From the IMG/VR virus record IMGVR_UViG_2778261619_000010, positions 1 to 21,065 of that record: a stretch of DNA of 21,065 bases; one strand, given 5' to 3'. The stretch comes from a virus (Duplodnaviria; Heunggongvirae; Uroviricota; Caudoviricetes). Under the pieces are notes generated by a model. It ran no database searches, was not told where the DNA came from, and saw only the letters and a list, made by a program, of their open reading frames with translations. Positions within the stretch are counted from its first letter, which is position 1; every line of letters begins with the position of its first letter. Below, piece after piece: positions 8,441 to 10,254 of the stretch. Position numbers and translations under genes: made by a program.

Positions 8441-8986
8441 TTAGCCATGGTTAACCTCCTGCGGCGGTTCCGGTAGCCGCATCCAGTCGGTTACATTACG
8501 ACTCTGTGTTTCGAAAAATTCATCACCATTGCGGACAATATCGAAAAACTCTCCGTCTCGATATTGCGCATAAAGAACGAATGCGCCATCACATAAAATA
8601 ATTACGTGCTGACCATCATCTGGCATTCGCTCACTACAGCTTATCCAACCATCCGGAATTACCGGAGAGTTGCCATTTACATCGAAGTTTGGCTCTGCGT
8701 CCTGAACTAGGAGGATGTAACCATTCTTGGCTGTATCAAGTTCTAACGCCTCGGTTACGGTACCGAAATAGCGATTACCTAAATCCGCATCACAAGTGCT
8801 TACATCAATGGAAACCTCCATGCCTTCGATTAATTCTGGCAAGTTGTAAGTTTGGCTTACAGGCTCTGCTTCCAGTGATGCCAGTGCAATTTCATAAGCA
8901 CGGCGCTCAATATTGTCTCGAACGTCCAGGCTGCTTATGCGCTCTTTGATTTCTTTAATCAGTTCTTTGTCGGTGAAAGTTGTCAT
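8441..8986 (-). CDS. phage early-left accessory protein with a C-terminal DUF551-like region
   Basis: 181-aa ORF, ATG with AAGGA upstream. C-terminal ...GWISCSERMPDDGQHVIILCDGAFVLYAQYRDGEFFD...VTDWMRLPEPP resembles the DUF551 pattern seen in lambdoid early-region proteins, from memory. Confidence 0.65.
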   Translation of the reverse strand: MTTFTDKELIKEIKERISSLDVRDNIERRAYEIALASLEAEPVSQTYNLPELIEGMEVSIDVSTCDADLGNRYFGTVTEALELDTAKNGYILLVQDAEPNFDVNGNSPVIPDGWISCSERMPDDGQHVIILCDGAFVLYAQYRDGEFFDIVRNGDEFFETQSRNVTDWMRLPEPPQEVNHG

Positions 8987-8996
8987 GTGTTAGTCC

Positions 8997-9260
8997 TTAT
9001 CCTGCTGTGCTTTCAACTGATGAGGGGAACAAAATCTTTTCATCAAACCCTGCATTCATATCATGAACAGCAACACACCAATCCATTGACGAACGATTAT
9101 CAAGAGCCTCCATGATTTCATCCATGCGGCGCAGGTCATACAGGTAAATGCTTTTATCGCCAATGGTGTAAAAACCAATTTTTTTCGGTGATGGGCAGCG
9201 ATCAAGAACTTCCTGTAATTCGTTCAACCATGCCCGTTCTTTTTTTGTCAAAGTTGCCAT
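8997..9260 (-). CDS. hypothetical phage early protein (about 87 aa)
   Basis: ATG at 9260 (MATLTKKERAWLNELQEVLDRCPSPKK...) with AAGGA 8 nt upstream, 1 nt after the stop of the upstream gene (translational coupling). The ORF-track extension to 9350 is probably not translated. Confidence 0.5.
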   Translation of the reverse strand: MATLTKKERAWLNELQEVLDRCPSPKKIGFYTIGDKSIYLYDLRRMDEIMEALDNRSSMDWCVAVHDMNAGFDEKILFPSSVESTAG

Positions 9261-9261
9261 A

Positions 9262-9480
9262 TCAGTTTTCCTTATACGGATTAATTTTATTGTGCAGTGT
9301 GTTGAACGACGCCCATACCACGTCGTTATACAATTCAATAACTGGTTCAATTATTTTCCCGATTGCCCAGACAAAAATTAGCGGGGATATCGGTATCATC
9401 AACACGATAAACAGAATGAGAAACAAAAGTTCTGTCGCTCTACTTTTTCGCGGATATTCTTTTCTGAATAATGTAGGCAC
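9262..9480 (-). CDS. small single-pass membrane protein (72 aa)
   Basis: GTG start at 9480 with AAGGAG 6 nt upstream. Hydrophobic core LLFLILFIVLMIPISPLIFVWAIG. Tightly packed between neighbouring genes. Confidence 0.45.
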   Translation of the reverse strand: MPTLFRKEYPRKSRATELLFLILFIVLMIPISPLIFVWAIGKIIEPVIELYNDVVWASFNTLHNKINPYKEN

Positions 9481-9481
9481 A

Positions 9482-9697
9482 TCACTCTCCTTTGTTGCTT
9501 CTCAAAATTTTATGCCCTGGCGCAAAAGCACGCGTTTTGTCGACGCTTATTCGCCACCCATCTTTACGTGCCTCTTTTGCACAGCCAGCCCATGACGTAC
9601 CGATATACTCACCGAAGTCTGGCACTGGATATACACCTTCCGTACACTGGCGGCAGTCACAATAGAGATGCATGGTGTAACTTGCGGCAATAGCCAT
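9482..9697 (-). CDS. small Cys-rich protein (about 71 aa), possible zinc-binding early protein
   Basis: ATG at 9697 with AAGGAG upstream; MAIAASYTMHLYCDCRQCTEGVYPVPDFGEYIGTSWAGCAKE... An alternative upstream start at 9739 is possible. Confidence 0.5.
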   Translation of the reverse strand: MAIAASYTMHLYCDCRQCTEGVYPVPDFGEYIGTSWAGCAKEARKDGWRISVDKTRAFAPGHKILRSNKGE

Positions 9698-9798
9698 ATC
9701 ACTCTCCTTTACCCTGAAGCATGGCGGCGCGGCAGGCATTCCAGCCTCTCACCTCTGCAATAGCGGCAACAGCATCGACCGCGTACATTTTAAGAGGG

Positions 9799-9978
9799 TT
9801 ATCCGCGCTGATAGGGCATCATCATTCCTTCGAGCTTGCCACTTCTTAACTCCTCCCTGAGCAATTGTATTGCTTTATCAATAACCTCTGACTTAGCGTC
9901 CTTTATGGCTTGCTTGCGGGGCTTTGCTTTCTGCTTTGGCAGATTTCTCAAGCATGATGGAATGTATGTCTGATTCAT
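9799..9978 (-). CDS. small basic hypothetical protein (about 59 aa) coupled to the N-like gene
   Basis: ATG at 9978, 3 nt after the stop of the N-like ORF; Lys/Arg-rich product. Confidence 0.35.
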   Translation of the reverse strand: MNQTYIPSCLRNLPKQKAKPRKQAIKDAKSEVIDKAIQLLREELRSGKLEGMMMPYQRG

Positions 9979-9981
9979 CAC

Positions 9982-10254
9982 TTACCTCGCTGTCAGTTGT
10001 TTTGATTTCCGGTATCCTGCCGCGTAAAGAGCTACGTTTGGCAGGCAAATACTTCCACTGCGTTCATCTTCTTCCTTACAGCGAAGGCTTCCGAGTGATG
10101 CTGCTTTATCTGCTCTGACGCAACCAGAGAGCTTTAGCGCAATTTTTCGCGCCAGTCGCTGTTCTTGCATTGCCTGCTCACGTTGAGCCTGTCTGCGTGC
10201 TCTGCGGCGATTTCTGGCGTTATCGTCAGCCAGATATGTAATGACTACTGCCAT
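9982..10254 (-). CDS. N: N-like transcription antiterminator (P22 gp24 / lambda N family)
   Basis: 90-aa product with an N-terminal arginine-rich motif NARNRRRARRQAQREQ and C-terminal ...LPNVALYAAGYRKSKQLTAR, resembling the P22/lambda N pattern from memory. GGAGG upstream of ATG. Sits between the OL/nutL region and the early-left genes. Confidence 0.65.
   Translation of the reverse strand: MAVVITYLADDNARNRRRARRQAQREQAMQEQRLARKIALKLSGCVRADKAASLGSLRCKEEDERSGSICLPNVALYAAGYRKSKQLTAR

Follow-up and report, generated by a model that had tools for sequence, protein, structure and literature searches.

A probable remnant of the leftward pL operon in a defective P22-like Escherichia coli prophage, with small accessory genes joined by a widespread gene-boundary linker

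The DNA considered here, referred to below as the window, is a 21,065-nucleotide (nt) tailed-phage record of IMG/VR (IMGVR_UViG_2778261619_000010, positions 1 to 21,065), and within it the interval 8441-10254 carries the antiterminator gene N followed by five closely packed small genes that we call gB', gC, gD, gE and gF. This locus is very likely the remnant of a leftward pL operon in a defective P22-like (lambdoid) E. coli prophage. The block gC-gF is the int-proximal exo-xis/ea end of that operon and not its natural N-proximal part, and it stands beside N because ~5 kb of early-left DNA has been deleted. Two of its gene boundaries share the sequence AAAGGAGAGTGAT, which, together with the start codon that follows, forms a 13-16 nt module, AAAGGAGAGTGAT(A/G)TG, that is a generic Shine-Dalgarno (SD)-stop-start linker of enterobacterial lambdoid accessory regions. 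The locus is of a kind already known, and its sequence is largely known as well.

All coding genes in 8441-10254 lie on the minus strand according to open reading frame (ORF) analysis, and the order along that strand is cI, a membrane-protein gene, the OL/pL region, nutL, N, the 60-codon stump gB', a deletion joint, the tail of an ea-type gene, gC, gD, gE, gF, tandem terminators, an orf55 homologue and int. The original prediction for this interval had placed small genes downstream of N, and the identity of N (9982..10254, minus strand; 90 amino acids (aa) with an arginine-rich N-terminus) is confirmed by matches to the Pfam family N_peptide (PF25694, E 6.5e-16) and to phrog_271 (E 1.7e-32), as well as by 95.6% identity to the protein that is annotated as N peptide in E. 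coli AST240. Upstream of N, a nutL-like site (10362..10402, minus strand) comprises a boxA, GCTCTTTAACA (10402-10392), which we take to resemble the boxA of lambda and of rrn operons, and a boxB-like hairpin, UCCCGC-CGAAAU-GCGGGA (10379-10362), that is present in the minimum-free-energy fold; its position and this resemblance suggest that the element is a nut site. Farther 5' of N, the segment 10445..10495 (minus strand) contains an operator-like palindrome, AAATACCTTGGGTATTT, at 10491-10475 and a second AAATACC half-site, and is the presumed pL promoter region. Strand and position, these upstream control elements and the presence of homologues in characterized lambdoid phages all assign the block to the exo-xis/ea part of a pL early-left region, and the matches in Shiga toxin (Stx) phages and in P22-like phages occupy the equivalent region.

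The gaps between the genes measure 0 nt (N to gB'), 101 nt (gB' to gC), 1 nt (gC to gD), 1 nt (gD to gE) and 10 nt (gE to gF). At the close-packed junctions a GGAG, AAGGA or GAGG sits 7-10 nt upstream of the start codon, and four of the five junctions have the arrangement of a polycistron, in which stop and start overlap or lie a few nt apart and the SD sequence is inside the upstream gene. Such SD-stop-start junctions are consistent with translational coupling. The spacing of 1-10 nt with juxtaposed stops and starts that had been described for the whole row therefore holds for these four junctions but not for the fifth, whose 101 nt are a deletion scar.

That scar is the joint J1 at 9800..9801, where junction alignments reveal a 2-nt TA microhomology. 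The closest relative of the interval is the chromosome of E. coli E10, with 99.9% identity over 8001-9801 (1802 bp) and 100% over 9800-10009, and in E10 the two stretches flanking the equivalent of 9800/9801 stand 5.0 kb apart. The joint fuses positions equivalent to 10502 and 15524 of the E10 locus (L001), so that ~5.0 kb of early-left genes are gone. According to the E10 annotation, the lost segment held a DUF551 pseudogene and genes for ead/Ea22-like, DUF7739, DUF2737, anti-RecBCD, ERF, kil and cIII products, together with two more for an 83-aa product and a coiled-coil protein. It is in this missing DNA that the genes to which the original prediction alluded lie, namely kil, cIII and those for recombination (anti-RecBCD). 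Matches to the interval occur in 3728 of 5426 complete E. coli genomes. In none of the phage records or complete E. coli genomes is at least 80% of 8300-10400 found in one place, and therefore none carries J1.

The joint accounts for the first of the five small genes. gB' (9799..9981, minus strand; phrog_5305) begins with GTG/ATG directly after the N stop codon and is a 60-codon stump of a 75-codon basic gene, because its TAA stop (9799-9801) is generated by J1 whereas the relatives in E. coli AST240 and E10 read on to 75 codons, continuing PYQRGYLSAISKLEVLKSEL. In keeping with this, it covers only positions 1-56 of the 71 in the phrog_5305 profile. A small basic protein was rightly seen here (60 aa, isoelectric point (pI) 10.0), but it is a truncated one. 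On the other side of the joint, frame analysis and tblastn identify the 101-nt spacer (9698..9798, minus strand) as the last 31 codons, LKMYAVDAVAAIAEVRGWNACRAAMLQGKGE plus stop, of a truncated ea-type mosaic gene that ends in the linker. Full-length relatives of this tail, 121-165 aa long, are found in the IMG/VR loci L063, L108 and L031, and some of them start with a gF-type N-terminal module. The description of the block as lambdoid early-left accessory genes was accordingly right in kind, but these genes belong to the int-proximal end and were moved beside N by the deletion.

J1 is not the only deletion. From 9800 to 11868 the window is continuous with the immunity region of AST240 (98.2% identity), a stretch that takes in cI and reaches the start of cro. 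Two further joints were placed with the annotated relative 06_3235: at ~11864-11868 the 5' end of cro is joined to the interior of the large terminase gene, and at 12618/12619 the terminase gene is joined to the interior of the coat gene. Genes for replication, Q, lysis, portal and scaffold have therefore been lost, the whole right operon being missing, and the prophage is for this reason defective. What remains intact are cI, whose product carries S24 and helix-turn-helix (HTH) domains (Pfam), the operator-like palindromes, the nutL-like boxA/boxB, N and int. A prophage that was tolerated and decayed would be expected to lose kil along with its lytic functions. Because this cryptic prophage is scarred by deletions, its gene order is no guide to the design of the operon. 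The E10 copy keeps the 5 kb and is itself cut in the 3' end of N, which is fused to a fragment of the tail-needle gene (L001 15733); since this deletion differs from that of the window, the two strains carry independently decayed forms of one ancestral prophage.

A second feature of the locus is the repeated linker. Copy 1 (9698..9710, minus strand) consists of AAAGGAGAGTGAT, that is, the SD sequence GGAG, a TGA stop and 1 nt, and lies directly 5' of the ATG of gC; copy 2 (9481..9493, minus strand) is identical, encodes the KGE and stop codon at the end of gC and is followed by the GTG of gD. The window has only these two copies of the 13-mer, and both immediately precede a start codon. A ribosome-binding module re-used before the starts at 9480 and 9697 had been pointed out in the original prediction, and 13 nt are indeed identical, but the quoted 15-mer stands before 9480 alone, and the copy before 9697 reads GTAAAGG at its beginning. 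With up to 2 mismatches allowed, the 15-mer AAGGAGAGTGATRTG has exactly two copies in E10 and in phage 933W (chance 0.07 and 0.02, respectively), and gC is flanked by two linker copies in the window, in E10 and in 933W.

Instead of a local re-use, the module proves to be a widespread gene-boundary linker, for an exact search of IMG/VR with AAAGGAGAGTGATRTG returned at least 127 occurrences in at least 120 contigs. Among the matches listed, the gene starting at the ATG or GTG of the linker is gE-like in 27 cases, gC-like in 13, gF-like in 12 and gD-like in 7, and the remaining 68 are about 40 other distinct small genes. The ORFs that end at the linker TGA belong, in the same set of matches, to many unrelated families, and all close with IRIKGE, AAML(H/Q)GKGE or NHLRTKGE before the stop; depending on the contig, one and the same upstream tail leads into gC, gE, gF or another gene. 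Conservation around the module extends only ~10 nt upstream and 2 nt downstream. It is because so many unrelated cassettes are joined by this sequence across contigs that we regard it as a generic linker, and it neatly illustrates how the accessory cassettes of lambdoid phages are put together and, probably, shuffled.

The gene between the two linker copies, gC (9482..9697, minus strand; PHROG 926), encodes the 71-aa Cys-rich protein of the original prediction and is the homologue of 933W L0068. It has four Cys, three of them inside a conserved CxCxxC, and its alignments define the motif LYCDCxxC ... AP.H within a family consensus of MI..GY.L.LYCDC..C...AR..GW.I......C.AP.H. The putative ligand pattern C13, C15, C18 ... 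C57-x-x-x-H/C resembles a small zinc site, and the protein may bind zinc; C13 alone is invariant, and the clade of the window has Ala at the fourth Cys. A profile search assigned at least 364 clusters (50% identity) to the family, whose members are nearly all stand-alone proteins of 60-100 aa. The sole clear multi-domain member seen, the 134-aa protein P0167, holds two tandem gC domains (260 bits). By tblastn, matches to gC occur in 427 phage records that include 933W, many Stx phages, Ackermannviridae of ~157 kb and phages of Klebsiella and Dickeya. A Pfam scan of 57 diverse relatives gave no family, and sequence searches of the PDB with gC and with the family profile returned only noise. A longer start (85 aa, ATG at 9739) was ruled out because homologue alignments begin at MAIAAS.

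The next gene, gD (9262..9480, minus strand), starts with GTG and encodes the predicted 72-aa single-pass membrane protein, a homologue of 933W L0067 (94% identity) that can now be assigned to DUF4014 (PF13198, E 1.2e-25; 90.1 bits, with a gathering cut-off of 23.2, and alignment to positions 2-72 of the 72 in the profile) and to phrog_1832 (E 2.1e-45). It has one hydrophobic span, at residues ~12-45, with a charge of +4 on the N-terminal side and -1 on the C-terminal side. A single-pass inner-membrane topology with the N-terminus inside is predicted because of the N-terminal charge of +4. Nothing relevant was found in the literature on DUF4014 or under the RefSeq accessions of the E10 proteins.

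One nucleotide farther on, gE (8997..9260, minus strand; PHROG 1714) encodes an 87-aa acidic soluble protein of pI 4.9 with a conserved RCPSP...GFYTIGD...YD motif. It has matches in 81 phage records, among them ST64T, Salmonella phages of ~59 kb and large myoviruses. Its fold is predicted confidently (predicted local distance difference test score (pLDDT) 90.5), and a Foldseek search of the BFVD database yielded no annotated protein and one unnamed match at E<=0.001. A longer start was considered here too (117 aa, TTG at 9350) and rejected, as homologue alignments begin at MA(T/K)LTKKE.

Opposite gD and gC, an antisense plus-strand ORF at 9188-9595 (135 aa) matches phrog_20982 (E 7.6e-59). It is a shadow ORF because its ratio of non-synonymous to synonymous changes (pN/pS) is 0.65 and because an extra in-frame stop interrupts it in locus L043, and phrog_20982 appears to have been built from such mis-called shadow ORFs. 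Against this value of 0.65 stand pooled pairwise pN/pS ratios, measured versus diverged homologous DNA, of 0.16 for gC, 0.20 for gD and 0.11 for gE, and for this reason the gC, gD and gE families are real genes under purifying selection across phages.

The last gene of the block, gF (8441..8986, minus strand), is the expected DUF551-like product, a 181-aa acidic (pI 4.2) EaA-like mosaic with DUF551 at residues 113-176 (PF04448, E 4.6e-19; 69.5 bits, cut-off 22) and matches to phrog_60, phrog_5117, phrog_660 and phrog_3323. Its residues 1-47 are an N-terminal module common to other ea proteins (loci L023 and L108), and the whole protein is 40% identical to 933W L0065, which is annotated as similar to EaA of P22. 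With Ead_Ea22 there was no Pfam match at E<=0.1, and tblastn gave no match to the lambda exo-xis region at 1e-3; a PDB sequence search with gF returned noise only. The literature describes DUF551 as a portable domain that YfdS and a variant of Ea22 also carry (PMC10834534; PMC4776307).

Two tandem intrinsic-terminator-like hairpins (8360..8411, minus strand; fold z-score -3.83, with 0 of 200 shuffles folding as well) end the gC-gF block. Beyond them the same operon remnant contains a 55-aa homologue of lambda orf55 (8173..8340, minus strand; 94.5% identity to lambda 29121-29285, phrog_676 E 5e-39), a protein speculated to be a T7 Gp2-like modulator of RNA polymerase (PMC8614690), and at its end a tyrosine integrase gene (6755..7972, minus strand), identified as an ORF and annotated in E10 as a tyrosine-type recombinase/integrase. 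A bidirectional hairpin lies at 8164-8187. No xis-like gene was seen in the 200 nt between the orf55 homologue and int (7973-8172); the related prophage of strain 06_3235 has a TorI-type excisionase between its orf55 equivalent and int. Rfam at gathering thresholds gave no match anywhere in the window.

Two neighboring regions may be described briefly. Between cI and N lies a gene at 10623-11012 (minus strand; phrog_6534, E 1.3e-78) whose start and the cI stop share 4 nt, and its 129-aa product has three to four hydrophobic spans. The place between cI and N is that of rexB/sieB-type exclusion genes, and the product is a candidate prophage-expressed membrane protein. In the flank outside the prophage, at 1-6000, identity to E10 identifies a 338-aa hypothetical protein, a protein with an HsdR N-terminal domain (1661-4021), a frameshifted insertion sequence IS3 transposase (about 4198-5337) and a PapB/FocB-type regulator; a 786-aa ORF of this flank corresponds to two coding sequences in E10.

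According to the original prediction, the products of the block match no nameable family. In fact gF and gD belong to DUF551 and DUF4014 and all five products fall into PHROG families, but these families have no assigned function, so that none of the five turned out to be a well-characterized early protein. The exo-xis genes of lambdoid phages are part of early pL transcripts, are dispensable and modulate lysogenization and induction (PMC8614690; PMC10789677; PMC4195576), and these same studies do not cover gC, gD or gE. By analogy, gC-gF most probably act like the characterized exo-xis proteins, as accessory modulators. Upon inactivation of cI, for example during an SOS response, pL would fire, and N loaded at nutL would allow transcription to proceed through the block and its terminators and on to int. 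Ribosomes stopping at each TGA could then re-initiate 1 nt downstream with the help of an SD sequence embedded in the previous gene, which would couple expression of successive genes. Their products, a putative small zinc-type protein (gC), a single-pass inner-membrane protein (gD) and two acidic soluble proteins (gE and gF), would be non-essential accessory factors that bind host or phage proteins and so tune host physiology or the balance between lysis and lysogeny. The shared linker, in turn, could provide a short patch of homology for the swapping of cassettes by phage recombinases. Relaxed homologous recombination is a property of Red/Rad52-like recombinases.

Several points weigh against this account. 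A simple consensus promoter scan called no promoter at the presumed pL (10445..10495). Selection for a good SD-stop-start design could by itself explain why the linker is conserved, with no part played by recombination, and coupling as well as recombination at the linker are inferred from sequence. The structure predictions that had been suggested as a check produced models of gC and gE that match no solved fold. Finally, three comparisons of gB' (9802-9981) with its relatives, a small sample, show 8 non-synonymous changes and 0 synonymous ones, and even full-length gB may not be a conserved protein gene. This 8:0 pattern is odd for a coding gene; RefSeq leaves the gB ORF unannotated in AST240.

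An alternative to a role as accessory modulators is that a dead prophage simply carries these genes along, without any function in this host, which is possible but on balance rather unlikely. At least three internal deletions, the absence of replication, lysis, portal and scaffold genes, a truncated gB, a spacer that is a gene fragment and the fact that no xis gene was seen between orf55 and int all fit such a fate. However, gC to gF are intact, the 1802 bp of 8001-9801 are 99.9% identical to E10, and the families are under purifying selection across phages, although this says nothing about selection in this host. Moreover, with cI, pL/nutL and N intact, the block would in principle be inducible.

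In a more ambitious version of the accessory reading, at least one of gC, gE and gF is a new host-takeover or counter-defence effector and the linker is the exchange point of an integron-like cassette pool, a proposal that we consider doubtful. The narrower view that the block is an anti-defence or anti-restriction islet, in which gC, gE and/or gF block host immunity, for example by acidic mimicry of DNA or protein or through inhibition by a zinc protein, seems less probable still. An early-left accessory position would suit it, as would the small size and acidity of gE and gF and the failure to find a housekeeping domain. In addition, the gC and gE families are distributed patchily over temperate and virulent phages (Stx, P22-like, Ackermannviridae and the ~59-kb Salmonella phages), and a distribution of this sort is typical of counter-defence genes. 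Yet the products match no named family except DUFs, and the one named anti-RecBCD gene of the parental prophage sits in the deleted segment. The searches of Pfam, NCBIfam, PADLOC and PDB with the block products gave nothing beyond DUF names (zero matches in NCBIfam and PADLOC), and the gB'-gF products have no similarity to Kil or CIII in Pfam, NCBIfam or PHROG. In these searches and in the models of gC and gE, no likeness in sequence or fold was found to characterized proteins of the anti-restriction or anti-defence kind (Ral, Abc2, Gam, Ocr, Ard, Acr and similar), so the kil-like, anti-restriction or anti-defence role that had been envisaged for these genes gains no support.

That gC and gD form a dedicated pair of a zinc protein and a membrane protein, for example in superinfection exclusion or as a membrane-targeting toxin or regulator, is very improbable because both occur with other neighbors: the 1-nt spacing is kept in the window, E10, 933W and many Stx phages, and a gC homologue of the Ackermannviridae phage Ag3 also abuts a protein with one transmembrane segment, but gD stands behind other genes in two of seven linker-defined cases (among the matches listed), gC-family contexts are many, the linker repeats flank gC as an independent cassette, and the membrane protein of Ag3 is encoded upstream, has 135 aa and belongs to another family. 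The idea that gC is regularly paired with a membrane protein was rejected, neither order nor family being kept in Ag3 or in a Klebsiella siphophage.

Genes of the gC-gF type are present in 933W, in hundreds of Stx and P22-like phages and in the majority of the complete E. coli genomes searched, and are annotated as hypothetical everywhere. The gC and gE families in particular are reasonable low-cost candidates for screens of phage 'dark matter'.

One of the known systems closest to the locus is the exo-xis (ea, or 'b-region-proximal') region of lambda and Stx phages, with orf60a, orf63, orf61, orf73, ea22, ea8.5 and orf55, studied in the Wegrzyn and Donaldson laboratories. The block of the window shares with it the operon, the strand and the place between recombination genes and xis/int. 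Small, tightly packed genes are common to both; in lambda and Stx phages these are dispensable and early, and those of the window would be so too. In both, an orf55 homologue is present, here directly downstream of the block. gC, gD and gF correspond to L0068, L0067 and L0065 of 933W in the same order, the spacing between L0068 and L0067 is also 1 nt, and these 933W genes sit in the variable part of the exo-xis region. The differences are that gC, gD and gE are not among the characterized exo-xis genes, that the conserved orf60a-ea22 block is absent from the window because it has been deleted, and that gF has no detectable likeness to lambda Ea22. With P22 EaA and 933W L0065, the V2 variant of Ea22 and YfdS of prophage CPS-53, gF shares the C-terminal DUF551, and its N-terminal module is of the ea mosaic type; in comparison with the EaA/L0065 type its middle segment differs, in line with the 40% identity to L0065.

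As for the linker, short homologies at gene boundaries have reportedly been proposed to serve modular exchange in lambdoid mosaicism, both in the modular theory of Susskind and Botstein and in the work of Clark et al. (2001) on HK620. The window resembles such cases in that an identical junction of 13-16 nt, with ~10 further partly conserved bases upstream, joins unrelated cassettes; its own linker may serve recombination and not translation alone.

As a whole, the prophage resembles Rac, DLP12, Qin and CPS-53, for it keeps its repressor, N and int and has lost replication, lysis and part of morphogenesis through internal microhomology deletions. Unlike these, it has a P22-like late region and represents a separate integration event, and its site and sequence are common to the prophages of E10 and 06_3235.

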